Source: Flavobacteriales bacterium
Lineage (GTDB): Bacteria; Bacteroidota; Bacteroidia; UBA4408
Reading direction: 5' to 3'
NCBI GenBank assembly: GCA_040383485.1
Contig: JBEIDK010000002.1
Coordinates: forward strand, 7,766-71,765
DNA length: 64,000 bases
Below, piece after piece: positions 2,307 through 60,700 of this stretch (the stretch's first letter is position 1; every line of letters begins with the position of its first letter). Position numbers and translations under genes: made by a program. The notes under the pieces were generated by a model that saw only the letters and a program-made list of their open reading frames with translations, did no database searches and was not told the DNA's origin.

Positions 2307-3335
2307 TTAATTCATATCATAAAATCTACTATTATCGCCTCTTCTATTTTTCTTAAATGGATTAAAATCAAATGTAATATATAATTCAAATGTATTATAA
2401 GTTGCTCCAGCAATTTTACTACCTCCCATTTCAACAGAATAATTAGCTCCAACTTCAATTTCTTCAATAAATATTGATAGTGATGCACCAAATTGAGCAA
2501 CAGAAAAACCATCGAAATTATTAAAGTGCTGATTTAGTCCAAATCCAATATTTCCTAAGATAGCTTCTTGATATAAGTCAATTCTAGATTTAGAACCTTG
2601 TTTGGAGAAAGTATTGTAGAAATACAAATAGGAATAATAAGGTAAAAAACCTTGATTATATTTATTGATATCAAATTGAATTCCAGTTTGTAAAGAAATA
2701 AATAAATCTTTAAAATTTGAAGCCTCACTATTAAATGATGTTTCGGGTCTATTAATATGTCTAACATTTGCTCCAAGTAAAATATCAGAATTATCAGCAA
2801 AAAAATCACTTGTATTATAAAAACTAACCCCAGCACCTACATCAAAATAATTTACATTATTGTTGATATTTATAGGATCATTTGAAATTCCTACTATTGA
2901 TCCCGTGAAAGCATTAATTTGGTCTTCAAAAACTAAAGAATTAAAATCTAGATTTGTACTTCCAAAGCCAACAGATACTGATGGATTAAAAATCCATTCT
3001 TCATTAAGTTGGGTTTTATAAATGTAATGTAGATTCGCAGAATTTGATGTATAACCTAACGAACTAATTTGCATTGAATTGACATCAACTGCTAGTGAAA
3101 AATCATGGTTGTCAAAATAATGATTGGCAAAAGCAAATCTATTATCCATTTTACTATTTTGATTAAAACCTTCTGAACTATAAATTATACCTGCTTTTGA
3201 AGAATCTCCAAACCCATAGAAACTAGGATTTGTTGATCCTGGTATCATATTTTGATTTTTATATATATAATCTTGACTAAATGCTATAGTCGAAAATAAT
3301 AGTATTAAAAGTAAAAAGCTGTTGTTCTTTTTCAT
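2307..3335 (-). CDS. PorP/SprF-family type IX secretion system outer-membrane protein (partner of the upstream type-B CTD adhesin)
   Basis: 342 aa with a signal peptide (MKKNNSFLLLILLFSTIAFSQ). The body is beta-barrel-like with alternating aromatic/polar residues and ends in an aromatic-rich strand. It lies 6 nt downstream of a type-B-CTD gene, the usual sprB-sprF arrangement. Sequence is divergent, so the call is partly positional. Confidence 0.65.
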   Translation of the reverse strand: MKKNNSFLLLILLFSTIAFSQDYIYKNQNMIPGSTNPSFYGFGDSSKAGIIYSSEGFNQNSKMDNRFAFANHYFDNHDFSLAVDVNSMQISSLGYTSNSANLHYIYKTQLNEEWIFNPSVSVGFGSTNLDFNSLVFEDQINAFTGSIVGISNDPININNNVNYFDVGAGVSFYNTSDFFADNSDILLGANVRHINRPETSFNSEASNFKDLFISLQTGIQFDINKYNQGFLPYYSYLYFYNTFSKQGSKSRIDLYQEAILGNIGFGLNQHFNNFDGFSVAQFGASLSIFIEEIEVGANYSVEMGGSKIAGATYNTFELYITFDFNPFKKNRRGDNSRFYDMN

Positions 3336-3341
3336 ATTTAA

Positions 3342-6300
3342 TTATTTTACAAGTAGGAATCTACCTTCTTTCTCAATTTTAACATCATTAATAGCAGTGG
3401 CTATAATGTAATATCTATAATTATTATTCATTGGTTCGCTTTGACCTTTTTCAATTCCATTCCAACCCCAATCTGGTCCTAGTAATGCAACTTCAGATTC
3501 GATTTCATAGACTAAGTTACCCCAATTATCATAAATTTGCATTGCGACATCCTTAATACCAAGTAATGAAGGTCTGAAATAATCATTTATACCATCATTA
3601 TTTGGAGTAAATATAGTTGGCAGCATCATTGTTGCTCCACTTCCAATAACTATTGTTTTACTTATCTTTCTTGAACAACCAAATCTATTATAAACAGTTA
3701 AAGTGATTTCATAAATTCCGTTAGTTGTATAGGTATGGAATACGGTTTCAAAATTTTCGCCATTTGAATCTGGTAATAAATCCTCAGGGTTATAAAACAC
3801 TTTGAATGGTGTGTTATCTCCAAAATCCCATACAATATAATCATATTCGGCTGGAATAGCACTCATATCTACTAAGTGAGTTAATTGTATACTTTCATTC
3901 ACAGAATAATAGCCATAATTTTCAAAATCATTTGATGTAAATTCAAAATCTGGTGTAATAATTGCAGTAGACACTCGAATTTCTCGCCAACAATTTTGAC
4001 TATTTCTAACTTTTACAATTCCAAATGGTGTAGTTGGGTTGTTAATTGATAATTCATACATATTATTACCTAAATCAACAAAAGGCACTAAAACATCATT
4101 ATAATAGAATGTTAAGTTTGGATCGAGACTATTTACATTAATTCTAATTTTACCAGGATTATCTTCACATAAATCATCATCCATAGTGATATTTTCAATC
4201 GATAATGCGCTATAATCATAAATGGTAAATAAGTAAGGTATCGTCGAACAACCATTACTGTCTTCAACTGTTAAGTAATATACCCCAGCTCTTAAATTAC
4301 AAATATTAAAATAGTTATTGTTAGCTGGTGGAGGTAATGTTACTAAAGTTTGTAATGATGGATCTAAATACTGTAAAGTAAAATCGGTGTAAATGCCACT
4401 ACCACCAGTAATATTGAAGTTGGCGCATCCTAATACCCCATTACAACTTACATTAGTCGAAGATTGTAACGAAATAATTATTGGCTGAGCTGGTAAAACC
4501 GTGTAACTTACTGTTGGTATTGGGCATCCTATTGCATCGGTTCCAGTTAGCGTGTAAGTTCCTGCCACTAGTCCAGTAATTGTAGTTTGATTTTGTTGGA
4601 AACCATTTGGTCCTGTCCAACGAATAGCATACAGCCCATTAACTGATACTCCACCCACAATGGTTACCGAAATAGCACCATCATTCACATTACTACAAGA
4701 AACATTTGTTATAACTTCATTTGTAATTGAGATAGGAGTTGAAACTCTTATTACACCTGCTTTAACAATTGAACAAGGTTCAGATGTTACTGTATAATTA
4801 TATACTCCAGAAACTAACGGCGTACCAGAAATAATTAATTGTCCTGTAGTTGCAGAAAATACTGCCGTTACTCCGGGAGGTAATCCACTAGACACAATAT
4901 TTGTTGCCCCAATTACATTATAGGTAATAGGTTGAATAGGAGTGTTAAAACTTGGTTGGCATAGCGTTTGATTATCAGTGCCAGCTGCTGATGTTAATAC
5001 TATTCCTACTGCTGTATTTACATTAGAAATAGTAACAAAAATTGTTTTAGGACAACCAGTTGTAGTGATAGGGAAATTAAATACTCCATTTACTAATGGA
5101 TTACCTTGAATAGTGTACACACCAGTTCCAGCATTAAAATTCAACGTTAATCCGTTTGGAAGCGTAGGGGTAATAATTCCCGTCGCTCCACCGCCTATTG
5201 TAAAGCTAATTGGAATAATTGCTGAACTTTGGCAAACCGATTGATTTATACTTCCTGAACCAGTAGTTAGTGTAATTGAGGCTTCAGGTCTAATATCAAA
5301 AGTAATGCTGTAAATTGCTGATGGACCACAAGTGCCTTGAGTAGTTATGGTGTAATTTTGTGCTAAACTTGTAGGACTTGTTGGTGTACCCGAAACGGTT
5401 AAAATACCATTTACAATGTTATAAGTAATTCCTGCTGGTAAAGTTGGGGTAACAGTAATTGTATTCACTCCACCAGATACTAAGAAATTTATAGGATCAA
5501 TAGGTGTATTTTGACATGCTACTTGATTGGTATTTCCAGATAGATATGCTATCGACTGTAAAGGATTCACAGTAATTATTCCTGTAAGTGTATTTCCACA
5601 TGCTGTTGTAGATGATATACTATATGGGAACGTACCACTTTGTGTTGGCGTACCAGAAATAATTCCTGTTGTTGGATTAAATGTAACACCATTTGGTAAA
5701 CCTGTTACTACCATTGTTGCACTAGCCGGAGAAATACTATATTGAATAGGTAATGCAAATGAACTTCCTAAACAAACTGTTGTATTTGGATTTCCAGAAA
5801 CCAAAGTAATTGTAGCGCTTGGATTAATAGCTATATTTCCTGAAGCACTAGATTGACCACAAATTCCAAATGATTCTACTGTATAGGTGAATGAACCAAT
5901 AGTATTAGAAGCTCCAGAAATTGTGATTACATTATTAACTATTGACCATGTAATTCCAGGTGGTTGAGAAGGACTAAATCTAACAATACCTCCAGTTGCA
6001 CCACCACCTAGGTTATAAATGATAGGTTGAATATTCACATTATTACAAACCGATTGATTTATAGTCGCTGGCACCAATGCTATGATACTATCATTTGAAT
6101 TCACAGTAATTGTTCCGCTAAACGTTGAATTACAACCGTTTGTTGAACCTGATGTATTCACTATATAGTTATAAACTCCTGTAACTAATGGTGTTCCAGA
6201 AATTGTAAAGGTGCCTGAAACATAACTTCCACTTAATCCAGCTGGTAAATTTGTAACAAATGCATTAGTTGAAGCCCCTCCAATGGTAAATACAATTGGT

Positions 6301-9300
6301 GTTATTGGAGTGTTTTGGCAAACAGTTTGTGATACCAAAGCTTGGTTAGTTGGTACTATTGTACCTACTTGTTGAACTGTTATAAAGGCTGTATTAGGTA
6401 GCGAAATATTTGTAGTGTTACACAATGCAGCACTTGAATCTTGAACAGATAAAAGAGTAATGGTATGATTGCCAGAAACAGTTGTTGGAAATGAAATAGT
6501 TGAACTGTTACTTGTACCTAAAGTAGTTATTGTTTGTATTGGCCCAGCACTACTATTACTCATTACTTGATAAGTAAAGGTATAAGGTGCTGTTCCATTT
6601 GAAGCTGTAAATGTTATTTGTGGTTGCGCTCCATTTTGACAAACAATAAAACTATTTTGACCCGTAATTGTTGCAGTAGGTGATGCGTTAATATTCACCA
6701 CAACTGGACTTATTGTTGAACATCCAAAAGAGTTAGTTCCTTTAATATAATACGTACCAGAAATAGAAACTGTACTTGGATTTACTAATGCAATTGTTGC
6801 CGCACTATTATTCCAATATGTATAACTTAAACCAGGTGTAGAACCAGCAGTTGTTGCAGTAATATCAACGGTTGCTGGAAGACAAGCTGGTGCTGGATTG
6901 GTTATGGTTACTATTGGTACTGTATTCACAGTAATCGTTCCAGTAGCAAATACAGTATTACAGCCACCTGTTAAAGGAATACTGTAATTAAATATACCTG
7001 CAGCTGTTGGAGTACCACTTATCGTAATTATATTTCCTGCCCATGCCGCTGTTACTCCTGAAGGTAAGCCAGAAACTGCACCTATTCCAGTAGCACCTGT
7101 TGTGTTATGTGTAATTGGCGTTAAAGGCGAATTGATACATACTGTTTGATTACTTGCAGTTGAAGTTACAGTATTGTTAGGATTCACAATAATGCTTCCT
7201 GTTGCATTTACTGTACCACAACCTCCTGTTAAAGGAATACTATAATTAAATGTACCTGATGCCGTTGGAGCACCACTTATCGTTATTGTATTTGAAGCCC
7301 AAGAAGAAGTAATACCAGTAGGTAAACCTGTTGCTGTACCAATTCCAGTTGCACCTGTTGTGTTATGGGTAATTGGTGTTAAAGGCGTATTGATACACAA
7401 TGTAGGTGTAGAAAGGGCAGGAGTTACTGTATGACTTGGAATTACAGTAATTGTTCCTGTAGCAGCACTTCCACATCCTCCAGTTAAAGGGATGTTGTAA
7501 TTAAAAGTACCTGACTCTGTTGGAACACCGCTAATAGTAATGGTATTGGCTAACCAAGAAGCAGTAACACCTAAAGGTAAACCTGTTGCTGTACCAATAC
7601 CGGTTGCGCCAGTAGTGGTATGTGTAATTGCTGTTAAAGGCGAATTAATACATAATGTTTGCGGTCCAGATGAAGGAGTTACTGTATTACTAGGATTAAC
7701 AACAATACTTCCAGTAGCAAATAAAGTATTACAACCTCCGGTTAAAGGAATGGTATAATTAAATATTCCAGATACTGTTGGAGCACCACTAATTGTAATG
7801 GTATTGCTTAACCAAGAAGCAGTTACACCAGTAGGTAATCCTGTTGCTGTTCCTATACCTGTTGCGCCAGTAGTTGTATGTGTAATTGGCGTTAAAATTG
7901 TATTAACACATAATATTTCCGAACTAGAAGCCGATGAAACCGTATTGTTTGGATTCACAATAATAGTACCCGTAGCATTAATAGTACTACATCCTCCTAA
8001 TAATGGGATGCTATAATTAAATGTTCCTATTGCAGTAGGCGCACCAGTTATGGTAATAGTATTAGCTGACCAAGAAGCTGTTACGCCAGTAGGTAAACCT
8101 GTAGCTAATCCAATACCAGTAGCACCTGTTGTAGTATAAGTAATAGGCGTTAAAGCAGTATTAATACATAAAGTTTGTGGTAAAGGAATTATAGTTACCG
8201 TATTGTTTGGATTTACAGTAATCGTTCCAGTAGCAAAAACTGAATTACAACCCCCAGTTAGTGGTATGCTATAATTGAATACACCTGCAGCTGTTGGAGT
8301 ACCACTTATCGTGATTATATTTCCAGCCCAAGTTGCTGTTAGCCCTGAAGGTAAGCCCGAAACTGCACCAATTCCAGTAGCACCAGTTGTGTTATGAGTA
8401 ATAGGCGTTAAAGGTGAATTGATACATACTGTTTGATTACTTGCAGTTGAAGTAACCGTATTGTCAGGATTTACAATAATGCTTCCTGTTGCATTTACTG
8501 TACCACAACCACCAGTTAATGGTATGGTATAATTAAACGTTCCAGAAACGGTAGGAGCGCCGCTTATGGTAATGGTATTTGAAGCCCAAGAAGCAGTTAC
8601 ACCAGTAGGTAAACCTATTGCAGTTCCAATACCCGTTGCGCCAGTTGTAGTATGAATAATAGGTGTTAAAGGCGTATTGATACACAATGTAGGTGTAGAA
8701 AGGGCAGGAGTTACTGTATTACTTGGAATCACAGTAATTGTTCCTGTAGCAGCACCTCCACATCCTCCAGTTAAAGGGATGTTGTAATTAAAAGTACCTG
8801 ACTCTGTTGGAACACCGCTAATAGCAATGGTATTGGCTAACCAAGAAGCAGTAACACCTAAAGGTAAACCAGTTGCTGTTCCAATACCAGTTGCGCCAGT
8901 AGTGGTATGTGTAATTGCTGTTAAAGGCGAATTAATACATAATGTTTGCGGTCCAGATGAAGGAGTTACAGTATTGCTAGGATTAACAATAATGGTTCCT
9001 GTAGCAAACAATGTATTACAACCTCCAATTAACGGAATAGAATAATTAAATGTACCTGAAACTGTTGGTGTACCATTGATGGTAATGGTATTAGCTAACC
9101 AAGAAGCAGTTACGCCAGTAGGTAAACCTGTTGCTATTCCAATACCTGTTGCTCCTGTTGTAGTATGCGTAATTTGAGTTAATGCCGAATTTATACATAG
9201 TATTGGTGTACTAGAAGCCGATGAAACCGTATTGTTTGGATTCACAACTACCTGAACTGTTATTTGTGTTGCATTCGAACATCCATTTATAGTTGCAGGA

Positions 9301-12300
9301 AGCGTAAGTAAATAGGTAACAGTTATTGGTGAATTAGTAGTATTTGTTAGAACTTCATTAATACTTCCTGTTCCATTATTAGCTGCTTCAAGAATTCCTG
9401 AAATAGCATTTCTTTGCCATAATATTGCACCAGTAGTAGATGAAGAAGGTATATAATTAAATGTACTTCCTGTACAAATAGCATTTGGAGTTGGATTTGA
9501 TGTTAGACTAGGAGCAGGATGTAAAGTAAAACTAATAAATTGAGAATTAGTACAGCCTTGTGGCGTTGTAATTGTAATTTGATATGAAACAATTAGATCA
9601 CTGTTTGTAGAATTAATTAATGTTTCAGAAATACTTCCAGTTCCAGAAGCAGCCACATTTGAAATTCCAGGTTGAACTGCACGAGTCCAAGAGAAAGTAC
9701 TTCCAATAGTTGCAGTTGTAGGGATGTAATTAAATACGGTTCCACTACATAGTGCAGCTGGATTTAATGTACTTGAAAGTACCGGTTTTGGGTTAATGGT
9801 TATTGGGAATGCAGAAGATGATGAACCAAGTCCGCAAGAATTACTTCCTGCAACACTTAAATTTCCTGATGTTTCATTTACTCCAATAGCTATTGTAATA
9901 GTATTTGTTGATGTAATTACTGTGCTTCCATTTGGCAACGTCCAAACATATGTTGTTGCATTTGGAATAGGTGAAGCGGTATAAATTAAATTAGTTGCCC
10001 CAGCACATACTGTTTGAGGTCCAGTTATTGAAACTCCAGTTGGCAGGGTATTTACCGTTATTGGAGTGTTAGCAATGGTGCTTCCACAACCATTATTTCC
10101 TGTTACCGAAACATTTCCAGAGTTAGCACCAAAAAGTACACTGATTGCATTTGTTCCCTGTCCAGATAGAATTGTTGCACCTGTTGGAACACTCCAAGTA
10201 TAGGTTTGTATTGATGTATTTACAGGAATAGTATAGGTAGCTGTAGTACCTTGACAAACAGTTGCTGGTGCGTTTGAGGTTATTGTACCTAAACTTGGTA
10301 CAGCACAGTTTATGGTAAGATTTATGTTATCTGAAACCGAACTTGTGCTACATGCACCAATACCATTAGCAGTTAAAGTTAATGTTTCTGTATTACAAAC
10401 TGTACTAAAAGATTGGTATGTTACAGGTGTTCCAGTATTAAATACTCCAACACCTGATGATGTCCAACTTTGGCTACTAGCATTAGTTACCGTTGTACCC
10501 GTTATTGCAAAAGGTACTATTGGTTGTCCTGGCACATAACATACTGCACCATTGGAACCTGCTTCAACACTAGGTAGCGGTTGAATTGTAATTATTAAAT
10601 CATCGTAAACCGCTGTAGCTTGTGCACATCCTGGGATTGGAGCAACATATAATCTAACAACCGTAGTTTGAACGGTATTTAAGCCTGATATTCCAGATAT
10701 AAATGTAGGATTTAATGGATTTAATGGATTAGGTGAAATACTTCCAGGGCCGCTATAAATACTCCAGTTTAATGATTGGTAATTAGTTGCATTACCATTT
10801 AGACTGATTTGAGTCGTGTTCATACACATTTGAACATCTGTAGTAGATACCGTTGGTTTTTTAACTATTGTCAATTTCATTTGACTAGTTGCTGTCGGAC
10901 AATTTGTTCCTCCAGTTGCAGTAATCGTTAAGTATACATGACCTAAATTAATATCATCTAAACTTGGCGTATATACTGGATTTAATATCGAATTACTACT
11001 GAAAGAACCAGAAATATAGGTAGGAATTGAAGTTCCATTGCTATTTTGAGAACTCGTCCAAGTGTATCCCACAGCATTGGTATGAGAAGCTTCTGCTAAT
11101 GTAAAGGTGCTACCTTCACAAATAGTAGCATTTGAACCTGCTGCAACTGTGATTTGAGGCGTTATTGTAACTTTAATTACATCGGTAACTAAAGAATTAC
11201 ATGATGTATTTGCCGCTCTTACCGTTAAATAAACATACCCTAAATTAATGTCATCTTGACTCGGTGTATAGGTAGGGTTGATAATATTTATATTTGAGAA
11301 TGACCCTCCTGTATATCCTGGGCTTGAAGTGCCATTACTATTTTCAGAACTCAACCAAACAATAGAGTTGCTATTTGTTGTTGTTGCTGTATTTAAAGCT
11401 AAAGGTGTGTTTTGACATATGGTTACATCAGGTCCTGCGTTTACAGTAGGTTGAGGAGCAATTGTAACGGTTACAATTTGAGAAACCAAACCAGTACAAG
11501 GTGCTAAATTCGTTGCTTGTAGCGTAAAAGTAACTACACCAGTTTCATTTAATCCAGGAGTGTATTCTGGATTAAGTGTATTTAATGTTGAGGGAACAAT
11601 TGAACCCGTTCCATTTTCGGTCCACAAAAAAGTTGAATAATCTTCAACAGATGCAATATTGTTGATTCTAATAACTTGACCTTGACAGGCCGTAATGTTT
11701 GTACCTACATTAGGTACAAGATTAATTTTAGCCTTTGGTTGTAAATTTACTCTTATAGTTGTGGTTGCCGGTAAGCTACATCCTGATATAGGAGTTGCTG
11801 TTAATTGTAATAATACAAAACCATTAGCAATTTCATTTACTGATGGAGTAAAAGTTGGTGTTTCTGAAGTAGCATTTGTCAAAGTTCCTGGTGTGCCAGA
11901 GACTCCGGTAATATTGGTCCATAATAAATTATTACTATTAGAAACAGTAACCAAATCAGGCATGGTAAAAGTTTCACCACACATTGAAATTAGATTCGAT
12001 GTCGTAGTAATTGCCGGATTTTGATTTATAGTGATGGTCATCGAATCTGTTACAGCAACCTGTGGGCAATTTGCATTAGGTAATGCCGACATAGTTAAGG
12101 TAACACTGGAGGTGTCATTTGAACCAAATATGTATACAGGGTTAATTCCTCCATTAGAACCGGTGTAATCAAAAGTTCCATTTCCAGATGAAGTCCAAGA
12201 AATAGTATATCCAGAATTGTAGTTTGATACACTTGCACCATTTAATAATACAGAAGTGTTGTTTTCACAGGCAACTAAATCAATTCCAGCTGAAATTTTT

Positions 12301-15300
12301 GGTTTTGCATACAGTGTAAGTTGCATACTATCGGTTGCAGAACTACATCCATTTGTAGTTGTTGCGTTTAATGTAATAGTAATGACATTTACACCTGTTG
12401 AAGTATTAAAATCACTTACACTTGGAATGTATAAGGGCGCTAATGGATTAGCAGTAAGTTGTATAGTACCTCCACCAGTTGTAGTCCAAGAATAATTGGT
12501 AGCATTAGTAACAGTACCATTTAATTGGAATGAGCCTATTCCTTCGCATAATAATCCATCAACTCCAGCAGTTACAATTGGTCTTGGATTTATTTGAATA
12601 GTTAAGTTATCGGTTACTGTAACAGGACATATTCCTAATCCTGTAGCTGTTAAAGTAACTGTAACCGTTCCAGTTGCACCAGCAGTTGGCACAATGACTG
12701 GGTTTAGCGTTGTTTCAGTACCCGCTTGAATTGTTGCAGGGCCTGCCACGCTCCAAGAAAATAAATTTGAATGTTGAACACTTGCTCCAGTAATTGTATA
12801 AGTACCTGTTTGACAAATGGTTCCATTATTTCCTGCTTCTACTATTGGTTTTGGAATAATATTCAATTGAATATTTCCAACACTACTAGGACATACTCCA
12901 TTTGCAGAAGCAGCAGTCAGGGATAATGTTACATTACCAGTTTGACCTGTTGCAGGAGTATACGTTGTAGCGGTTGTATTATTTGGAGTAAATGTGCCTA
13001 AACCATTTGAAGCACTCCATTGAAGACTAGAATAATTAGTTGCTGAAGCATCTGTATTTGTGATGGTTAAAGTAGAACCTTCACAAATTGTTTTAGAACT
13101 TGTTACTGTTACAAAAGGTTCTGGAACAATAGTGATTGTTTTAACAGAAACTGCATCTTGAGCACATTCAGTATATCCTGTTGCAGTTAGTGTTAACGTT
13201 ACTGTTCCTGTTTGTCCTGACGCTGGAATATAAGTAGGTGTTAATGTATTTATTGTAGTGACATCTAATGCACCTGGTCCAGTTGCTGTCCATGTGATTG
13301 TTGTGTAATTGCTTGCGGTTGCTTCTCCATTAGCTAAAGTATAATTGGATCCTTCGCAAATTGTAGCTGCGATACCTGCATTTGCAGTAGGATTTTTACG
13401 AATAGTAATTACTACACTATCAGTTTCAGGTGGGCATGTTGTATTGCTTGTTGCTTCTAAAGTTAATGTAACTGTTCCGTTAAGTATATCGGCACTACTC
13501 GGTATATAGTTTGTCGTTAATGAATTTATATTACTAAATGTACCTGTTCCTGAAGTAGTCCAATTATAGCTAACAGAATTACTTGCTGAACCATTTAAAC
13601 TTACAGTTTCATTTTCACAAATTGTTTGATTTAAACCTGCATTGACTACTTGAGTTGGTGTTAAATTTAAAATAACAAAATCAGTAACAGTACCAGTACA
13701 TGGTGCAATTGATTGAGATGTTACAGTCAATATAATAGGTGTGCCTGCTGCAATTTCAGCTGCACTTGGGTTATATATTGGATTTAAAATAGAAGTATTA
13801 CTAAAAGTCCCGCTATTTACTCCACTACTTGAGTTTGAAGTCCAAGTTATCGTTCCATTATTTTGACCAGTAACCCCAGTTATTTGGAAAGGTTCGCTAG
13901 AACAATTATTTCTATTTTCAACACCAGCATCAAGTATCGGTCGTTTTTGAATAGTAACTGTTTTCGTTGCGGTTGCTACCGAACATACTGGGTCGCCAAA
14001 AGCAGTAAATAGAAGTGTAAAACCATTTATATCGTTACTTCCTGGTGTATAATGAGCTGTTTCAGCATTTTCATTGGTAAACGTTCCATTAGATGTTCCG
14101 CTAGTTGTCCACAATACGCTATTTTCATTTGTTGCAGTAGCTGTAGCAGTAAATACTGTTCCTTCACAAATAGTTTCATTTGGTGTTGTCGTTACAATTG
14201 GAGCAGGTTTAATGGTAATTACTATTTCCTCAAAGTCAGTCATAGCGCATAAAGCATCTGACTGAGCTGTTAAACGTAAGGTTATCGTATTCAATAATAA
14301 ATCAGCTGCAGAAAAATTATAAGTAGTTACTAAAGCTGTATTGCTTGCAAAAGTACCGGTTCCAGTTGTGGTCCACAAATAGGTTGTATTTGTGGTTGTA
14401 TTTGTAACCGTGGCAGCAATAGTAGTTGCATTTAAAGCATAGGAAGTTTGTGTATTACAAATAATATCCGTTGTGTTAGCAAAAGTTACAATTGGTTTTT
14501 TAATTACATCCAATGTAAATTGTTGTGTTGTTACTTCGGTACAAGGTGCATTACTGTTAACACTTACTTCAATGATAACGGTATTGCTTGAAGTATCTGG
14601 TGTAAATATTGGAGTAGCTGTATTTATCCCAGATAAAGTTCCAGAACCTGAAACGATTGCCCAACTTATAGTTGATGGATTATGATGGTTAAATATTGCA
14701 TTTAGTTGTTTAGGCGTATTTTCACAAAAAGTGTAGTTTGTTTGTGTAGCATCTATAGTAGCTTTCTTAGTAATATTTACTCGTATAGTATTTACTATTG
14801 GTGTTGCACAAGGCGCAATTGGAGTTACAGTTAAAACTAAATTCGCGAATCCAGCTGTTATATCAGCAGCCGATGGAGTATAAGTCGGCGTAAAAGTCGT
14901 ACTTCCTGTTAATGAGCTTGGATTAGTTGTTGTCCATTGAATTGAAGCTATTGAAGTTGGATTAGTTACCGTAATTTGACTTAATGGTACTTGATAGGTT
15001 TCCGTTTCACAAATTGTAACTTGTGATGGATTTACAGTGATTACTGGATTTTTTGTAATCAAATGTTCCACAGTAGAACTAACTGATCCAGCACAAGGCG
15101 CTATTGCATCAGCTGATAACGTTAATAATACACGGCCGCTTGCAATTTCAAGAGGGCCAGGGGTATATTCAGTAATTGTATTTAATTCTGAAGCAGTAAA
15201 TGTTCCGTCTCCACCATTATTATTCCAAGTTAAATTAGTTACATTACTTGATAATGCATCGGTTGTTGTAATTACACTTCCTTCACAAATTGTTTGCGTA

Positions 15301-18300
15301 GCTCCTGCACTAACACTTGGTTTTTTCTGTATTGGAATACGTACTGTTTTAGATACATTTGTACTACAAGGCGCATTTGGTATTGCAGTGAGTGTTAAAT
15401 CGATGTAATTATTATTTATATCCGTCAAACTAGGTGTGACAATTGGAGTTAACGAAGTTGCATTTGAAATAGTAGTACCCGTTCCGGTTGTTGAGGTCCA
15501 AATGAATGAAGCTGCATTTTGAACAACTGTACCATTAACTAAAACATTTGTTTCATCTTCACAAATGGTTGGTTGCGGAGTTACAACTGTTATACTTGGT
15601 GTTTTAATTAAGGTTACATCAATAAAACTAACTAATGGTACAGCACATGGAGCTATTGGATTGGCAGTTAAGGTTAATCGAATTGGGTTTGCACTTAAAA
15701 TATCGGCTGCACTTGGTGTGTAAATTGGATCTATGATGTTAGTAAAATCAAATGTACCGGTTCCAGATGTTGACCAAACTAAATTCGATACTGTAGTTAA
15801 ATTAGCCGTTGCATCAGTAATTTGAAATGGAGTAGCACATCTAGTTATGTTAAATCCTGCATTTGCAACTGGAAGTTTTTGGATGGATAAAACCAATGAA
15901 CTTGATACAGGAACAACACACGGACTAATTGAATTTACGGTTAGGGTTAAAGTTACAGATCCTGATGCCATATCAGCATTTGAAGGATTATATACTGGAT
16001 TTAAAGGATTTCCTGATGGAGAAAAAGTACCTGTTCCAGATGTAGTCCACACTATTGAGTTGGTGTCATAATCGGTAACGGTTGTTCCGCCTATTCCGTA
16101 TGAATTCTGTGTAATACAAATAGCATCATTTGCAGTAAGGTTAATAACAGGTAATTTTTGTAAAAATAATCGAATGACATCGGTTGCTGGAGCTGAACAT
16201 GGTGTTAAAGGATTTGCCATTAATGTTAAATCCACAAAACCAAGATTATAATCTGCTGCAGATGGAGTATATGTAGCCGTTAAAGTAGTCTCATTTGTAA
16301 AAGTACCCGTCCCTGTTGTTGACCATGTTACATTAGAATAATTTGTGGCATTTGTTCCAATAGTAACATAACTTGTACCTTCACATATAGTAGCATTTGC
16401 AGGTCCTGCATTTGCTGTAGGTGGACTTATGAAATGTAACGTAATTGTGTTTGAAGTAGAAGAATTGCAATTTAATGGGTTTCTTGCTGCTGTTAAAGTT
16501 AATGTTACTGTTCCTAAAGTATAATCACTTGCAGATGGAAAATAGGTTGGTGCAATGACTCTATTATTGGGTGCAAATGTTCCAGATCCAGAACTAGTCC
16601 ATGTAAGCGTGTCATAATTTGAAGGGACTACTCCAGTAACAATATAAGAAGGGTCGCCCACACACAAATCTACATTTGGATTAATAACAGTTATAGTAGG
16701 AATTTTGTTGATTGTTAAGGTCATTTCATCCACTGCATTGGCATTACATGGGAAGTTTTTAGTTGCAACTAATGTTAAAGTAACCGAACCATTGTTGTTG
16801 TCACTAGGACCAGGTGTATAGGTTGGAGAAATAGTAGAACCTCCTGTGAAAGTTCCATCTCCATTTGTAGTCCATTGAACGCCAATATTGTTTGAAGCAG
16901 TAGCGGTTGTGATTTGGTACGATCCACCTTCACAAATTTGCGCATCTACACCAGCATCTGCAGTTGCATTAGGAATAATTGTTATTGTTGTGTTTGAACT
17001 TGCCGAAACGGTACAAGGTGCAATTGCATTGGCAATTAATGTTAAATATATTGTTCCCGATTCAGTAGGTTGGGACATATAAGTTGGATTGGTTGTATTG
17101 GTATTTATAAAAGTACCTGCACCACCATTTCTTATCCAATTGTATCCGCTTGAATTTGTTCCATTTCCAGGTATTACAACCATCTCTCCTTGGCAGATAA
17201 CTTGAGCTGCTCCAGCATTTGCGGTTGGATTTTTCTGAATGGTTAATACCATTGTATCGGTAACATTAGAACAACCTGCTTGGGTTCCAGTAATGGTAAA
17301 TGTTACAGAACCTGCATTAATATCATTTGGACTTAAGGTGTAAATAGGGTCTTCATTATGAATATTATCAAATGAACCAGAACCTGTGGATGTCCAAGTA
17401 ATTGAAGTTGTATTGGTAGCAGTGGCTTGTAATTGATAAGTAGAATTGCTTTGGCAAATTGTAGCATTTCCACCAGCAACTACACTCGGAGTTGCATTGA
17501 TAGTATATAGTACGCTATCAGAAACGGTTGGGCCGCAATTATTTATAGGTGTAACAGTTACTGTAAAGGTTACCGTTGTATTTAAGTCGCTTAGCGAAGG
17601 AATGTATATTGGGCTACTAGCAGTAGGATCAACAAAATTACCATTACCGTTTTGAACGGTCCAAAGTATTGAACCTGCATTTTGAATAGACGCATTTACA
17701 TTTATTGAACTTTGGCACACCAATCGATCTGGTCCAGCATTTACAATTGGATTTTTAACAATATTTATCACAATATTGTCAGTTGCAGGTGTACTACAAG
17801 GATTATTTCCTGCAGCGCTTAGGGTTAACGTTACAGATCCATTTAAAATATCGTTTGCCCCAGGGATGTATGTTGGCGTGAGTGAGTTAGCCCCAACAAT
17901 AGTTCCATCTCCAGTACCATTCGACCATAGAATAGTGCTATTTACAATGTTTTGAGCTGCCGTTGGATTAAAAGGTACTATGTAATTTGATCCTTCACAA
18001 ATAGTTACGGTTGGCGGTCCTGCATCAACTTTAGGTGCCGGTGTAATTAAAACCGAAACGGTGTCAGTTGCGCTAGGACATGTGGTATTTGATGATGCAG
18101 TTAATGTTATTACTATAGGACCAACATAATTTTGATCTCCTGTACTTGGAGTATATTCAGGGATATAAGGATTACTTTGATCTAATGATCCTGTGATTCC
18201 AGTAGGTAAAGTCCAAACTAAATTTGAAGCATGTAAAGTACCGGTTGCATTAATTTGAATTGGATCTGTTCCACAGGTAATAACGTCTGTTCCTGCATTG

Positions 18301-21300
18301 GCAATTGGTTTTTTATCAATTATGATTTCTAATTCCTCAGAATAACTGTTTGAACAAGCTCCAATTCCCGTTACGGTTAATCTTAAACGTACAGAACCAA
18401 ATGCAATATCAGCAAGACTTGGACTATATTTAGGATTGGCAATATTAGTAAAATCAAATGTCCCAGAACCTACTACCTTTGACCATACTATTGATGATGG
18501 TGTGTGATTGGTAATTGTAGATTGTAATTGAATTTGTGTAGTAGTTTCACATACACGAAATTGTGGCGCACCTACTATTGTAATTACAGGTTCAGGTTGT
18601 ACTGTAATAGTTACTTGATTCGTTTTTTTACAACCCGTTGCTGTAACCGTTTCTTCAACGGTATAGGTTGTCGTAACCACTGGATTAACTGATGGATTAG
18701 AAGAAGTAGATGTAAAACCTACAGGTGTACTATTCCAAGAATAAGTAGAACCTACAGTTGGATTTCCTCCAATTAATAAGTTATTTCCATCGCATATAGA
18801 TGTATTTGGAATAACTAAAGGATTTGGTAGAGGGTTAACGATAACTTGAAATTGATCTTGAACCGAACATCCTGTAATATTGTTAGTAATAGTGTAGATG
18901 TAATTTTGGGTAACTACTTGATTAAAAAGTATGTTTACTTGAGGTAAAGTGCTAGAATAGCCTAAATCTGAAGTCCAAGAATAACTGTGTCCTCCAATGA
19001 AAGCATCACCGAAAGTTTTTGTTGCTCCAAAACAAACTTGTTGGTTAGGAATATCTGTAACAACTGGTGTAGCTTTTATAGTTATTGTCGCAACAGAAGA
19101 TTGAGCTTCAGAGCAGATACCATTTTTTACTATTACTCTATATTGAGTGGTAGTAGTTAATGGACCAGAAGTATAGCTATTTGTTGTATTTGCAATTGTG
19201 GTCCAATTAGTTCCACCATCAGTAGATTGTTCCCATCGAAGAATAGTTCCATTAAACCCTGAAACAGTTAATAACCCACTAGTTTCTCCTTTACATATCG
19301 AAGTTGATGAAGAAAGTGTTCCTCCATTACTTTGGGAATTCACATCAATGAAAGCCGGTGATGAATATTCTACGGGTGCAGTTCCGCTTTGAATAACAGC
19401 TCTAAAATAGGTTGGTGTACTTATATTTGTAGCAGTATAAGTTGCATTAAGGTTGTTTATATCAGTAACATTAGCCGAAAAATCAGCAATTGTAGATCGC
19501 TGCCACTTTATTATATTTCCTGTGTATCCTGATAATGTTAATGTTGTTGAATTTGTTCCCGAACATACCGTTGTAGATCCCGAAACAGCACCTCCAATAG
19601 AATTAGGAAATACCGAAATAGTAACAGCAGTTCGATTATTACTTTCACACCCATTAACTGTTTGTGTAGCATAATAAATTCCGGTCGACAATAAAGTTGC
19701 GCTATTTATAGCAGTACCACCAATAGCTGAAGAATACCAATTTGGAGTTCCAGAGCTAACAATTTGTAAATTAGCAACAGTTGCATTGTCAGATACTAAA
19801 AAGGATTGTGCATTTGCAATAGGAGCTACGGGTGTAGCAGGTTGTGTATTGATTGTTACAGTTGTTGAATTAGAGGAAATACATCCATTAGCATCTGTAA
19901 CCGTATAATTATAGGTGCCAGTTGGTAATCCTGAAATAGTAGTAATTGATCCAGATGATGTAAAATTCACATTTCCAGGAAGTCTTGTTAATGTCCAGTT
20001 ACCTGAAGGTAATCCACTTAAACTTGCACTTCCGGTAGCTACAGCACAAGTTGGTTGAACAATTAATCCAACAATAGGAGCGCTTGTAGATGGAGCTGCA
20101 TTAATTACAACATTTGATGAAGCTGATGAACTACAGTTTCCATTAGAAACTGAGAAAGTATAGGTGCCTGCGCTTAAATTTGTAACTGTATATGAATTCC
20201 CTGTAGCTGAATAGGTTTCTCCTCCGGGTGTTTTGGTTATTGTGCAATTGGTTGGTAAACCATTTAAAATAACACTGCCTGTTGGGTTGGCACAAGTAGG
20301 TTGCGTAATTGTTCCAATTGTTGGTGCTGTTGGTATGGTTGGCGCTGCATTTATAATTGCAGTACTAGTTGAAGAAACGCATTGATTACTATCTTTAACT
20401 GTAAAACTATAGTTTCCAGCAGCTTGATTATTTAAAGAGAAAGTTGCTCCAGTGCCATTATAAGATCCTGGGTTAATGGACCAACTACCTGTAGTAGGTA
20501 ATCCAGAGAATTGGATACTTCCTGTTGAAGTTGAACAATTGGGTTGAATTACATTCAGTTGAGGAGCAGCTGGAAGTGCATTTACGGTTACTAACACCGA
20601 ATCCGTATTAAAACATCCATTTGTTCCTAAAGCAGTAGCAGTGTAAGTAGTTGTTGTAGCAGGTTGAAAAGCAACACTATCTGTAATCGCATTATTCCAA
20701 GTTATTGAAGAAATCCCACTTCCAGTTGCTGATAAAGTAACATTTGATCCAGCACAAATATTTTTATCTGTTCCTGCATTAATTACAGGAAGCGCTTTTA
20801 CATTTACGGCATAAGTTCCAGTTCCAATACAGTCATTACTGTCTGTTCCATTAACGGTGTAAGTTGTTGTATTTGATGGAGTAACAGTAACAGAAGGCGT
20901 TGAACCAATTCCACCATTCCACACATAGGAATTAGCCCCAGATGCGGTTAATGTGGTACTTTGATTTAAACATATTGAATTATTTCCTGTAACTGTTATT
21001 GAAGGTAATGAATTAATTAAAACCGCAACAGAATTTACAGCAGAGCATCCATTACCATCTGTCCCTTTTATGTAATAAGTTCCAGAAGTTGCCACCAAAT
21101 TAGGTGATGTAAGTGGAGTAGTTGCTCCTGCATTTGTAAAATAGGAAAACGTGAGATTTGAATCTGACCCAGTAGTAACTGCTGATAACGTTAAATTTAC
21201 TGTGTTTGGATTACAAACAGGTGTCGGATTACTTGTAATTACTATCGGTTGTGGATGAACTACAAAATTAGCAGTGGTTACACATCCGTTCGCATTTGTA

Positions 21301-22673: not shown

Positions 22674-22712
22674 AATTAGGATTCTATGTTTTTTTGGGGT
22701 AAAAGTAATTAA

Positions 22713-22720
22713 CAAAATTA
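22713..22720 (-). promoter_or_regulatory. candidate -7 box TAATTTTG for the giant adhesin gene
   Basis: The plus strand reads caaaatta, which is TAATTTTG on the minus strand. It lies ~40 nt upstream of the ATG at 22673 and overlaps the alternative ATG at 22715. Confidence 0.4.
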
Positions 22721-22872: not shown

Positions 22873-24378
22873 ATGAAAAAATTATTTTTAGGTATATTAA
22901 TTTATATTGTATTTACAAATGTTGCGCATTCTCAATCGGGCTATGAAATTATTGTTAATTTAAAGAATAGCAATGATACAATAGCTTATCTAACCTATTA
23001 CCAGTTTGATAAAACCTATATAAAAGATACTTGTTTAGTTGCAAAAAAGGGTCAATTTATTTTTAAAGGAAAAACCAAATTAGATACGGGAATTTATACT
23101 ATTGTAAGTCAACAAAAAACAATTTATTTCGATTTTTTTGTGGATGAACAAAATCAGTTTTTGGAATTTAAAAATGACGTATCACCTGATAATATTCAAA
23201 CCCTTGAAGTAGTTAATTCAAGTACACAAACCACCTTTGTTGATTACTTAAAATTTGTAAGTAAGCAAAATAGTAATTTTCTTAGTTTTAAGAATAGTTT
23301 GACACTTAAGACCAAAGAAGATACCCTTCGACTTGTAGAAAAACAGAAAGATATTGAGCAAGAAATAAGTAAGTATGAAAACGATTTTTATGAAAAAAAT
23401 AAATCCAACTTTATAGGTGATGTAATTAATTTAAAAATTGAAAAGACACTTAAAGATATTCCAATTGCCTCAAACGGAAGACCAGATAGTATAAGGGTAT
23501 ATAATCACTATAAAAAGCACTATTGGGACAATGTGAATTTTAGATCAAATGCCACAATGCGTAATCCTTTCTTTTATAACAAACTGAAAAAATATTTTGA
23601 ATCGGTCGTGGTCCAAAATCCAGATTCATTAATTGTTGAAGTTGATCGAATTTTAGCAAAAACCAATAAAGGAACTGATATAAAAAAAATAGTTCTAGCA
23701 CATTTTATAAATTCTTTTGAAACTTCAAAAGTTATGGGATTTGATAAAGTATTTGTTCATCTCTCCGATAATTATATAAAAAATGGTGAAGGAGTTGGAA
23801 TTTATAAAGATGAATCAGTAATTAATGCGATCACTAAAAGAGCTGATTTGTTAAAACCTTTATTACTAGAATCTATTGCTCCAGAACTGTATTTAATCAA
23901 AGCTGATGATTATTCAAAAATTAATCAAATGGGTTTTAATACGATAAAAGATAGTGAAGATGTTACAAAGAAGTATTATGCAAATGTTGATGAAATAGGT
24001 AAAATGTTTGTTACGCTTTCTTCCATTACTGCTGATTATATAATATTGGTTTTTTGGGATGTAGATTGTAGTCATTGTCAAACAGAAATACCAAAATTAT
24101 TAGAAGTTTATAATGATTTAAAGAAAGCAAATAAAAGCATAAAAGTTGTTTCGGTATATACGATGCATGATGGGGAAAAATTTTTAAAGTATATTTTAGA
24201 TAAAGGATTAACGGATTGGATAAATGTGTATGATGGAGTTTATATTAATAACCTAGTTAATAAATATGATATTTATTCTACTCCAGTTATATATATTCTT
24301 GATAAAAACAAGAAAATAAAAGCAAAAAGGTTAGGAGTAGATCAAATTAAAAAATTTATTTTTTCTATAAATCAGTAA
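22873..24378 (+). CDS. secreted TlpA/AhpC-like thioredoxin-fold protein with long N-terminal domain
   Basis: 501 aa with a signal peptide (MKKLFLGILIYIVFTNVAHSQ). The C-terminal thioredoxin fold carries a CxxC motif (FWDVDCSHCQTEIPKL...YSTPVIYILD). Confidence 0.7.
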   Translation: MKKLFLGILIYIVFTNVAHSQSGYEIIVNLKNSNDTIAYLTYYQFDKTYIKDTCLVAKKGQFIFKGKTKLDTGIYTIVSQQKTIYFDFFVDEQNQFLEFKNDVSPDNIQTLEVVNSSTQTTFVDYLKFVSKQNSNFLSFKNSLTLKTKEDTLRLVEKQKDIEQEISKYENDFYEKNKSNFIGDVINLKIEKTLKDIPIASNGRPDSIRVYNHYKKHYWDNVNFRSNATMRNPFFYNKLKKYFESVVVQNPDSLIVEVDRILAKTNKGTDIKKIVLAHFINSFETSKVMGFDKVFVHLSDNYIKNGEGVGIYKDESVINAITKRADLLKPLLLESIAPELYLIKADDYSKINQMGFNTIKDSEDVTKKYYANVDEIGKMFVTLSSITADYIILVFWDVDCSHCQTEIPKLLEVYNDLKKANKSIKVVSVYTMHDGEKFLKYILDKGLTDWINVYDGVYINNLVNKYDIYSTPVIYILDKNKKIKAKRLGVDQIKKFIFSINQ

Positions 24379-57735: not shown

Positions 57736-60700
57736 ATGACAAAATTAATTACACAAAAAGCCAATACAAAATTGGCAGTTAGCTTAAAAAACTATCTTTT
57801 AAGTTGTAAAAACCAAACCAACTACCTTACTTGTTTGCTCATTTTACTTTTTTCAGGTATGGGATGGGGGCAGAGTACTGCAAATTACAACTTCACAGTT
57901 GGAACAAGCACACTTAACAATATGACAGGTAGTACTAGTATTATGAATGGCATTCAAGATGATCTTGGCAGCACAGTATTCCCTATTGGTTTTAACTTCA
58001 TCTATATGGGAACAAGTTATTCTCACATAAGTGTAAACAGTAACGGACAAGCTAGACTTCATACATCAAGTGGCGCGACTGCAATAAGTGGTTCAGCTAT
58101 TTCATCATATTCTTCAGCTACAGTTACAATTGCACCAATGGCTGGTGATAATCAAGTAGGAAATGGAATGTCTTATTTGGTTACAGGTTCAGCACCAAAC
58201 AGAAAATTGATTATTGAATGGAATAAATTTTATGTAAGTCTTACAGATGTAAATTCTGGTAATATGCAATTGGTGCTTTATGAGGGGACTGGAGTGTTTG
58301 AGTTTATTTATGGTAATATTGTGAATTCAGCTTCTAGTACTAGGTCGAGATCTATTTTTCACAGTTCAGGAAGTACATCAAATACATCAGCTTTTATTAC
58401 GGTTGGTACAACTCCAACAATAAATACTACAGCTACTTCACCAATTGATAATAATTTTGCAGCAAGTGTAGCAATTGCAAATTTAGCTAATAGAATGTTT
58501 ACTTTTACTCCACCTATACCGGTATCTGGGCCTACTAATCTTACTTTTACTAATGTATCTGCTTCATCTATGACACTGAACTGGACAGCTGCTACGCCTA
58601 CTACAGGAATTGTACGATATGTGGTGCAACGTTCTGCTGATGGGGGAATTACTTATCCTGTAAGTACAAATGTAGCATTAGGCACCAATACACTTGTTGT
58701 AACTGGTTTATCTCCAAGCACAAGCTACACGTATAGAGTAGTAGCTGTGAGCGAAGGAGTAGAGAGTGCTCCTGCATCGGCCTCTCAATCAACAAATGCT
58801 CCTACAACTTATACTTGGATAGCCACTTCTGGTACTGCTTCTTGGGTAACACCTACAAGTTGGTCACCTGATAGAACAACTCCAGACGCTACAGATATTT
58901 TAAATTTTAGTAATGGTGGTAGTTCTATTGTTACAAGTATTCCTACTCAAACAGTTGGTAATATTGTATTTTCTAATAATACAACAGCAAATTTTCAGGC
59001 AGCTTCGACAGCCACCTTAACTTCGGGTGGGCTTACAATTCCTTCTGGGAGTACATTAATGTCTAATGGAACTACTGCGGCACTTACAATAGCTTTTTCT
59101 TCAGGTGCAGTTAATACAATTGGAGGAAGATTGGAAATATCAAATACAGGTACACCTGCCAATGGAATAACTTTTGCAAATAGTGTTACCACAATAACTT
59201 CTGCAGGAACTCTTGCTGCAGGTGGTTCTGTTGCCGCAACTGTAACTGGTACTACTTCTACTCTTGTAATTAATGGAACTTATGAGCACAACTATACAAC
59301 GGTTTCCGGTACAATCCCTACAGCTACTTGGGCAGCTACATCTAATCTCAACATTAATTCGTTTACTAGTAATACTTCGCTTCCAACAGGATTAATTGGT
59401 CAAACTTTTGGTAACCTAACATGGAATTGCACAGCACAAACCGGAAATATTTCTTTGGGTGGTAATAGCATAACTTGCGCAGGAACTTTCACCATGACAT
59501 CCACTAACACTGGCTCTCTAAGATTAGGTGCTTCATTAAATGGAGTTATAGCCACAAATAATTTCATTCAGACGGGAGGAACAATCGATTGTAGTTCATC
59601 AACAGGTTCGTCTATAATTAGGGTTTCTGGTACTTTTAATCAATCAGGAGGAACTATTACTGAAACAGGTACTGGCTCGGGAAATATCGAGTTTAATGGT
59701 GTCTTGGCCCAGTCCGTAACTCTTGGTGGCACAATCTCAAATACAATTAACTATAGAATCAATAATAATGCTGGAATTACTTTATCTGGAACAATGGCAA
59801 TTACAACTGGTGCCGGTCTGAGGATTTCATCTACGGCGGCTACTCCAATCAGTGGGGGTACCTTAACATACACTGGCAACACAACTTTAACTTATGACGC
59901 ATCTTCAGGGGCGCAAACGGTTACTGCCAATGAGTTTCCGTGGTCTAATGGTCCTAATAATCTAACTATCAACAATACTTCCACTTCTCCCAACAATGTT
60001 GTTACTATACCTTTTGATAGGACAGTAAATGGTACGCTTACGATGACAAGTGGAGATATTAATATTTCGTCAAATAATCTTACGTTAGGGACATCAACTT
60101 CTGCATTAGGCACTTTGTCTTATACAGCTGGGGCAATTCGTGTAACTTCAGGAACCTTAACAAGATGGTTTGGTACCTCAGGTTTGCCTACTTCAGCGCC
60201 AACTTCAGGGATAGGTTTTTATCCTTTAGCATCTAATTTAAATAATCGTAATGTCGGAGTTTTCTTTAGTACAGCTACAGTATTAAGTTCAGGCGGTACT
60301 ATAACAATTGGCCACACTGATGTTGCGGGACTTTCAACGCTTACTTCTTTTACGGATGCGGGTTACAACGTAGATACAAGAACTAATGCATCATGGACAG
60401 TAACTACTGGAAATGGAATAGCCACATCGGGTACTTTGGGTATGCGTTTGACAGGTGCAGGAGCATGTGCTACACCAACTGTGGCTAATCTTCGATTAAT
60501 GCAAGCAAATGTCGCGGCTGGGGTTCATGCTGCTGGTACAGGAACTACTCCAAATTTTCAAGCAAATAGAACAGGATTATCACTTACTGATATAGCTAAT
60601 ACACATTATATAGGTGCGGGTAATGCAGACATTCAAACGGTATTTAGTTCAGTTGCTTCAGGTGACTGGAATAATCCAGCTACTTGGGATGTTGGTTCAG

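Follow-up and report, generated by a model that had tools for sequence, protein, structure and literature searches.

How do two copies of a domain block within one gene come to be nearly identical over a short patch and clearly diverged on either side of it? This question is raised by a stretch of 64,000 nucleotides (nt) from a Flavobacteriales bacterium (GenBank assembly GCA_040383485.1, contig JBEIDK010000002.1, positions 7,766 to 71,765), which is referred to here as the window. Its minus strand carries a giant open reading frame (ORF; 3342..22715), which encodes 6,457 amino acids (aa) from a TTG start. [quoted passage not shown] Within this gene lies an array of nine tandem units (6918..9233, minus strand). 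We propose that the array is an old five-domain super-repeat, which has been patchily homogenised by gene conversion and resized by whole blocks, in the stalk of a giant T9SS substrate. We give this explanation a probability of roughly 0.78.

Tandem Repeats Finder, applied to the first 20 kb of the window, reported one array (6924-9247) with a period of 258 nt, 9.0 copies and 73% matches. A repeat search gave spacings of 258/255/258/258/258/258/255/258 nt among the nine copies and found this array as the only DNA-level repeat in the giant gene. With an invariant TGATGIG motif as anchor the array resolves into nine units of 86, 85, 86, 86, 86, 86, 85, 86 and 86 aa. These units, P1 to P9 in protein order, cover aa 4495-5266 of the ORF; read along the minus strand, they start at position 9233 and finish at 6918. 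The original prediction had named nine units of 86 aa; the number is confirmed, but two of the nine are one residue shorter.

The prediction had also paired units 1 to 4 with units 6 to 9, and this pairing is evident at the DNA level. When the sequence is displaced by five units (1,287 nt), the 1,037 nt that can be compared are 88.5% identical, while other multiples of the unit give only 55-74%. The paired units are 81.8% (P1 and P6), 97.3% (P2 and P7), 86.0% (P3 and P8) and 87.2% (P4 and P9) identical, against a background of 67-77% among other unit pairs; P5 has no partner. According to the unit coordinates and the identity matrix, block copy A comprises P1-P4 (8205..9233, minus strand) with types A, B, C and D. 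P5 (7947..8204, minus strand) closes the first five-unit block; it is of type E, which forms its own clade across species and occurs here as a single copy. Block copy B comprises P6-P9 (6918..7946, minus strand), again of types A, B, C and D, and is displaced by 1,287 nt from copy A. The order of the entire array is hence A-B-C-D-E-A-B-C-D.

The age of this pattern was estimated from related loci, which we reached via the protein cluster of the neighbouring PorP-like protein described below. An assignment of these loci to strains of the same species was considered and rejected, since their flanks are just 85-90% identical to the window; they belong to sister species. Evidence from within the species comes only from Logan contigs and from two short contigs. 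A tree of all units contains five deep clades, which correspond to types A to E, and each of them includes units of every sister species. Because all species appear in all five clades, the ABCDE pattern predates the sister species. Within a unit type the copies of one genome mostly group together, as in concerted evolution. The same order of events emerges from synonymous divergence (dS). In the unique C-terminal part of the giant gene (1,150 codons) the window and the sister species are separated by a dS of 0.61-0.66. The block copies, outside the near-identical tract, are separated by 0.61-0.64, and since this equals the distance to the sister species the duplication is not recent. The recent segmental duplication that had been suggested for this locus is therefore not supported.

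The relatives are almost all metagenome-assembled genomes (MAGs) of freshwater Flavobacterium. More distant ones (about 70% aa identity) have 1, 2, 6, 10 or 23 units, which are 65-89% identical and show no higher-order periodicity. The longest of these series is a run of 23 consecutive strong units in L001 (7829-13585), with 71-83% DNA identity and no higher-order period, in an ORF that spans the entire 14.9-kb contig. The MAG records of L001, L002, L004 and L010 are labelled Rhizobium sp., Chitinophaga pinensis or Chryseobacterium gleum. They carry a Flavobacterium-type giant gene with about 70% aa identity on freshwater-style contigs, and the organism labels look wrong.

Next we consider the patch in which the two blocks are nearly identical. 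A comparison of 7376-7700 with 8663-8987 gave exactly nine mismatches, in agreement with the approximate count of the original prediction. The mismatch-free limits of the tract are 7375-7702 and 8662-8989. Within these limits there are 9 mismatches in 328 nt, as compared to 110 in 709 nt outside (84.5% identity), and the more diverged surroundings, with an identity of about 81-85% across the rest of the blocks, also agree with the earlier estimate of about 80-90%. The low-divergence scan statistic of this segment was reached in none of 1000 free permutations and in none of 1000 codon-wise permutations. A sharply bounded segment of low divergence beyond chance, and not a uniform divergence, is what a gene-conversion tract is expected to leave. 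On the side of copy B (7375..7702, minus strand) the young tract covers P7 in full, together with 5 codons at the end of P6 and 20 at the start of P8, with its nine differences separated by exact runs as long as 80, 68, 58 and 45 nt. The mismatch map and the dS place it on the side of copy A (8662..8989, minus strand) in the whole of P2, the final 5 codons of P1 and the initial 20 of P3.

Could the identity of the tract be the result of selection? Nei-Gojobori estimates of dS between the blocks are 0.638 in the N-terminal flank, 0.082 in the tract and 0.614 in the C-terminal flank. The corresponding ratios of nonsynonymous to synonymous divergence (dN/dS, omega) are 0.16, 0.21 and 0.08. Because dS falls in the tract while omega stays low throughout, the identity reflects conversion and not selection. 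Furthermore, the converted units are of type B, which is the least conserved type across species (78-85% identity); therefore a constraint on the DNA or the protein does not account for the identity of the tract. A drop at synonymous sites without extra conservation between species is the signature of gene conversion, and the gene conversion that had been suspected inside the coding array is in this way separated from selection. The dS of 0.08 in the tract is comparable to the split between the lineages L025 and L027 (dS 0.11), and the tract arose later than the block duplication.

A second, weaker stretch of low divergence was found at 6996-7223 (minus strand), which relates P9/P8 to P4/P3 (partner 8283-8510). 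Its divergence is 7.5% as compared to 19%, and its statistic was reached in 9 of 1000 permutations after the main tract had been removed. Sliding windows show a reduced proportion of synonymous differences (pS) in this stretch. It is either an older conversion or part of a slowly evolving type-D unit.

The same process is evident among lineages and strains. Each sister lineage has its own mosaic of identical and diverged stretches between the block copies. The copies are 100% identical over about 1 kb in L026/28/32/33 and in L044, while L027 and L035 have long identical stretches next to diverged ones. Strains of the same species, with flanks that are 98-99% identical, were examined by means of Logan contigs anchored in the unique flank, not by raw reads. 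In runs X3 and X6, 11 of the 12 variants in 6951-6995 are the base of the partner copy; the same variants occur in X5 and X8. X4/X11 have 21 variants in 6971-7403; 13 of them, against 2.8 expected, lie at sites that distinguish the window's copies, and 12 of these 13 are the partner's base. The Fisher p values are 9e-13 and 9e-8. In X4 and X11 the 6971-7403 piece occurs at about 1.7 times the depth of the flank, as expected when two copies are nearly identical. Strain polymorphism that is made of partner-copy variants is a further mark of gene conversion, and because strains of the same species hold the partner's bases at copy-differing sites we conclude that conversion is ongoing. A contig of 421-436 nt, present in six freshwater runs (X3-X6, X8, X11) and corresponding to 8976-9239 of the window, shows a related pattern. 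It tracks P1 (9239-9017), then fits the P4/P5 junction (8235-8193) better than the P1/P2 junction and resumes in P2 (8948-8827). Judged from its sequence this contig represents a further mosaic at the level of junctions in the common strain.

Does the array also vary in length? Among arrays with both flanks assembled there are two size classes in the close relatives. Nine units (ABCDE-ABCD) are present in the window, L025, L026/28/32/33 and L044; 14 units (ABCDE-ABCDE-ABCD) are present in L027, L035, P0009 and P0010. The most informative pair is L025, which has nine units with diverged copies, and L027, which has 14. Their flanks are 96.6-97.2% identical, and a single 1,287-nt block accounts exactly for the difference between the arrays, which is what unequal crossing-over would produce when the blocks pair in register. 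Alleles of 4 and 19 units, which unequal crossing-over also predicts, were not seen among the assembled arrays. The locus had been proposed as a hotspot for the gain or loss of units, and the variation in close relatives (9 or 14) and in distant ones (1, 2, 6, 10 and 23) bears this out. In the close relatives, however, the steps are whole blocks of five units (1,287 nt) and not single units. L037 was considered as a nine-unit allele of the 14-unit L035 lineage and rejected: it is a truncated contig, since its first 75 nt match L035 4030-4104 at 100% and so represent the final part of a type-E unit.

Some observations weigh against the explanation that we prefer, or narrow it, and they are best discussed together with the rival explanations. 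Nine is a count taken from one assembly and from the k=31 contigs of X1, the probable source run, and k=31 Logan contigs cannot link units; among the sequencing runs listed for this stretch there is no Nanopore or PacBio run. The nine-unit order or the tract could be the product of an assembler that joined or mis-phased units or co-occurring strains. The array is indeed the hazard for short-read assembly that had been anticipated: at least seven contigs end within it or at its edge (L029, L030, L038, L039, L045, L048, L051), 100-N gaps hide an uncertain number of units in the scaffolds L043 and L046, and Logan contigs fragment at this site. Furthermore, X1 also holds related genomes, with a summed depth of up to 95 in some bins, and the exact runs of up to 80 nt within the tract exceed common k-mer sizes. 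The copy A tract at about 8736-8899 has no Logan contig of at least 99% identity in X1. This gap is most likely due to bubble-popping in the simplified contigs, as deduced from depth: single-copy pieces have a depth of 24-31 (flanks 27) and the shared tract piece has 43, with about 40 expected for two copies at k=31 by our own rough arithmetic. Against an artefact, zero-mismatch pieces of X1 (7194-7404, 7375-7682, 7653-7952) span both edges of the tract in copy B. The ABCDE-ABCD layout with its 258/255-nt spacing recurs in independent assemblies of no fewer than five sister lineages, which came from different samples and were made with different assemblers, and the blocks differ by 12%, which is far above the strain variation in the flanks (1-2%). 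An assembly artefact is in our view highly improbable. The size classes are affected in a different way. The identical block copies in the L026 group and in L044 mean that their short-read count of nine is a minimum, and that L027 is a long-read contig was deduced from its name and its frameshifted genes.

A recent duplication of four or five units, with patchiness from uneven mutation or selection and a tract held by constraint, would explain the block structure itself. The perfectly identical block copies of some relatives indicate that duplication or homogenisation of whole blocks does occur. Yet outside the tract the blocks are as far apart in dS as sister species are, the five unit types and the layout are common to these species, and the drop in the tract affects synonymous sites, with unchanged dN/dS, in a unit type that is poorly conserved. 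This account is barely credible. More can be said for imports, in which foreign DNA replaced parts of once-homogeneous blocks and left the tract as an untouched remnant. The end of the array together with the next 300 nt or so (about 6643-7259) is 93-98% identical to L025/L026, while the rest of the gene is about 86% identical; this patch could be a slowly evolving segment or the result of exchange between species. P9 resembles the type-D units of other species more closely (93-96% identity) than P4 does (86-89%). One type-C unit differs by 13% between L037 (unit 3) and L035 (unit 8), in spite of flanks that are 99.97% identical and eight other shared units that are 100% identical, which indicates either the replacement of a single unit or a chimeric contig. 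Imports from the sampled species would, however, break the relationship of P1/P6, P2/P7 and P3/P8, the members of which are each most closely related to one another inside the clade of their type. A dS of about 0.6 is seen in the two flanks of the tract and likewise in the unique part of the gene between species, and strain variants with the partner's bases point to an internal donor. Imports are quite unlikely as the main source of the mosaic, although exchange between species may add to it. The tract copies are 82 vs 84% identical to the type-B units of relatives, values too close to favour one of them as the donor of the conversion.

Conversion and block exchange within an old super-repeat would operate as follows. 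In an uncultured freshwater Flavobacterium, the array would make up the middle-to-proximal part of the stalk of a giant surface protein that is exported by type IX secretion. The super-repeat, (ABCDE)n + ABCD with n = 1 here, is composed of five domain types, which are Ig/cadherin-like and have diverged from one another; it is old and common to the sister species. Copies of the same type are exactly 1,287 nt apart and in frame, which would allow RecA-type homologous recombination between them. Non-reciprocal transfer would overwrite patches and in this way generate the tract of about 328 nt in P2/P7 and probably the older, weaker one. Unequal crossing-over would add or remove a whole five-domain block and give rise to alleles of 9 and 14 units. 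Going by the size of Ig domains, one such block corresponds to about 20 nm of stalk. The protein would presumably be a rod-like stalk, and a change in its length may or may not be of benefit to the cell. It is tempting to see the super-repeat as a selected design, and not as an accident of history: diverged neighbours would limit misfolding between adjacent domains, conversion would keep copies of the same type alike, and length could switch, appreciably often in natural populations, in quanta of five domains (predicted sizes 4, 9, 14 and 19 units). This idea is unlikely to be correct; if true, it would describe a length-phase-variation system in free-living freshwater Bacteroidota.

What kind of protein carries the array? 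The ATG at 22673 is a likelier start than the TTG at 22715. The public protein cluster starts at this ATG (6,443 aa), with P0016 100% identical, and P0016 and all relatives begin 14 codons downstream of the TTG with a signal-peptide-like sequence (MRDLYINRLF...). The Pfam matches in the protein are Ig_7, PKD_6, PKD_5, He_PIG and CHU_C. The T9SS type B sorting domain (CHU_C / Bac_Flav_CTERM; 3366..3623, minus strand) scores above the cut-offs of both models, with 46.3 bits for PF13585 (cut-off 27) and 38.2 bits for TIGR04131 (cut-off 35), as is expected of a T9SS substrate. None of the models in Pfam and NCBIfam names the array unit; the search gave only a sub-threshold match to He_PIG. An AlphaFold2 model of two units, computed with 58 sequences, is all-beta with two tandem beta-sandwiches (predicted local distance difference test, pLDDT, 93.7). 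The PDB structures that it matches best come from SraP, a staphylococcal adhesin (cadherin-like modules, 30-32% identity), and from titin (Ig tandems). The units are thus modelled as Ig/cadherin-like beta-sandwiches, and each of them contains an invariant cysteine pair. Just C-terminal of the array are six domains (4746..6341, minus strand) that belong to the same fold family but have diverged far more; they reach 19-46 bits with a hidden Markov model of the unit as compared to 134-145 bits for the array units. The same six domains are present in relatives such as L002.

The gene of a 342-aa outer-membrane protein (2307..3335, minus strand) follows 6 nt downstream of the giant gene. Its product matches TIGR03519 over the full length with 83.3 bits (E 1.9e-23), short of the 90.55 that the curated cut-off demands. 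A local Pfam search gave no match; PF11751 and the name PorP/SprF are found among the members of its 90% cluster. Judged by these matches it is very likely a member of the PorP/SprF family. Secretion by the T9SS and anchoring on a PorP-like partner have been shown for SprB/SprF and for PG1035/PorP (PMC9143113), and the PorP-like protein is presumed to carry and anchor the giant protein. No PorE/OmpA-like gene adjoins it. A second large secreted protein (2,077 aa) is encoded at 57736-63969 on the plus strand; its sorting domain is of T9SS type A, with a score of 43.3 bits for TIGR04183.

The locus also has a practical side. It marks a site at which metagenome assembly is unreliable, and where block copies are identical a short-read unit count is only a minimum. 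L027 (ctg154980_4.53x_l) has low coverage; its housekeeping genes (enolase, ADI-like) are split into fragments, and the start of its giant gene was placed at an internal Met, which gives 5,680 aa. The split genes look like frameshift errors, and the lengths of the family in the databases (5,680 to 6,797 aa) seem to reflect in part assembly and gene calling. On the other hand, the pattern of partner-copy variants provides a simple marker for tracking conversion in population data.

Diverged neighbours with a higher identity at a fixed multi-unit spacing are familiar from titin super-repeats and from centromeric higher-order repeats. Both evolve by unequal crossing-over and conversion of whole blocks; both are eukaryotic, and the resemblance is only formal. 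A literature search for a bacterial surface protein described as having a 'higher-order repeat' or 'super-repeat' found none, which is a weak test of novelty.

Among bacterial proteins the closest parallel is provided by the Periscope proteins, surface proteins (SasG, Rib, Sgo_0707, CdrA and Esp among them) whose repeat stalks vary in length (Whelan et al. 2021, PMC8201768). For these proteins a high DNA identity between repeats has been proposed to drive intragenic recombination (PMC8201768). The giant protein is likewise predicted to be surface-anchored and consists of tandem folded, mostly Ig-like domains with short linkers, and its repeat number varies (9 vs 14). The T9SS CTD and the two-unit model identify it as a surface protein with a folded-domain array, for which a rod geometry is plausible; the variation in number occurs between similar lineages (L025 vs L027), which are sister lineages. 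The identity of adjacent units is 67-77%, while units that are five apart are 82-97% identical here and up to 100% in relatives. High DNA identity of the repeats thus holds at the spacing of the block only. Unlike in the Periscope proteins, recombination here acts on a block of five domains in which neighbours are diverged. Moreover, the protein belongs to the T9SS type B substrates, comes from an environmental member of the Bacteroidota and has a predicted C-terminal PorP-like anchor, whereas those of the pathogens are anchored in the cell wall. Its length variation is seen between sister lineages, and the Periscope proteins have a functional N-terminal head.

SprB/SprF of Flavobacterium johnsoniae, the gliding adhesin system (PMC9143113, PMC12635249), resembles the locus in size class (669 kDa for SprB vs 6,443 aa here), in the highly repetitive Ig-like architecture, in the type B CTD and in the PorP/SprF-family gene directly downstream. 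The C-terminal tail of SprF has twin cysteines, which form a disulfide link to GldK on the gliding track (PMC12635249). In contrast, the 342-aa PorP-like protein contains no cysteine, the giant protein has no Pfam match to the SprB repeat, and neither sprC nor sprD is located upstream, where the neighbour (22873-24378) is a thioredoxin/ResA-like gene on the other strand. The missing sprC/sprD and the lack of a twin-cysteine carrier led us to reject the giant protein as an SprB orthologue, and it is probably a static adhesin rather than a motility adhesin.

A third comparison is with cagY of Helicobacter pylori, which encodes a protein exposed at the surface and contains direct DNA repeats that recombine in frame (PMC2194252). 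Both genes contain many regularly patterned direct repeats and have in-frame variants that differ in length and composition. In cagY, however, the repeats are short motifs in a component of a type IV secretion system under immune selection, while here they are whole folded domains in an environmental host and their rearrangement is known from sequence comparison alone. The idea of a variable-length stalk has been documented mainly in long-read genomes of cultured pathogens, and the present locus extends it to a giant T9SS adhesin of an uncultured freshwater Flavobacterium, in which the recombining unit can be a multi-domain block instead of a single domain. Together, these comparisons characterize the array as a clear instance of the repeat dynamics of surface proteins, and an ordinary one, which differs from the known cases in detail.

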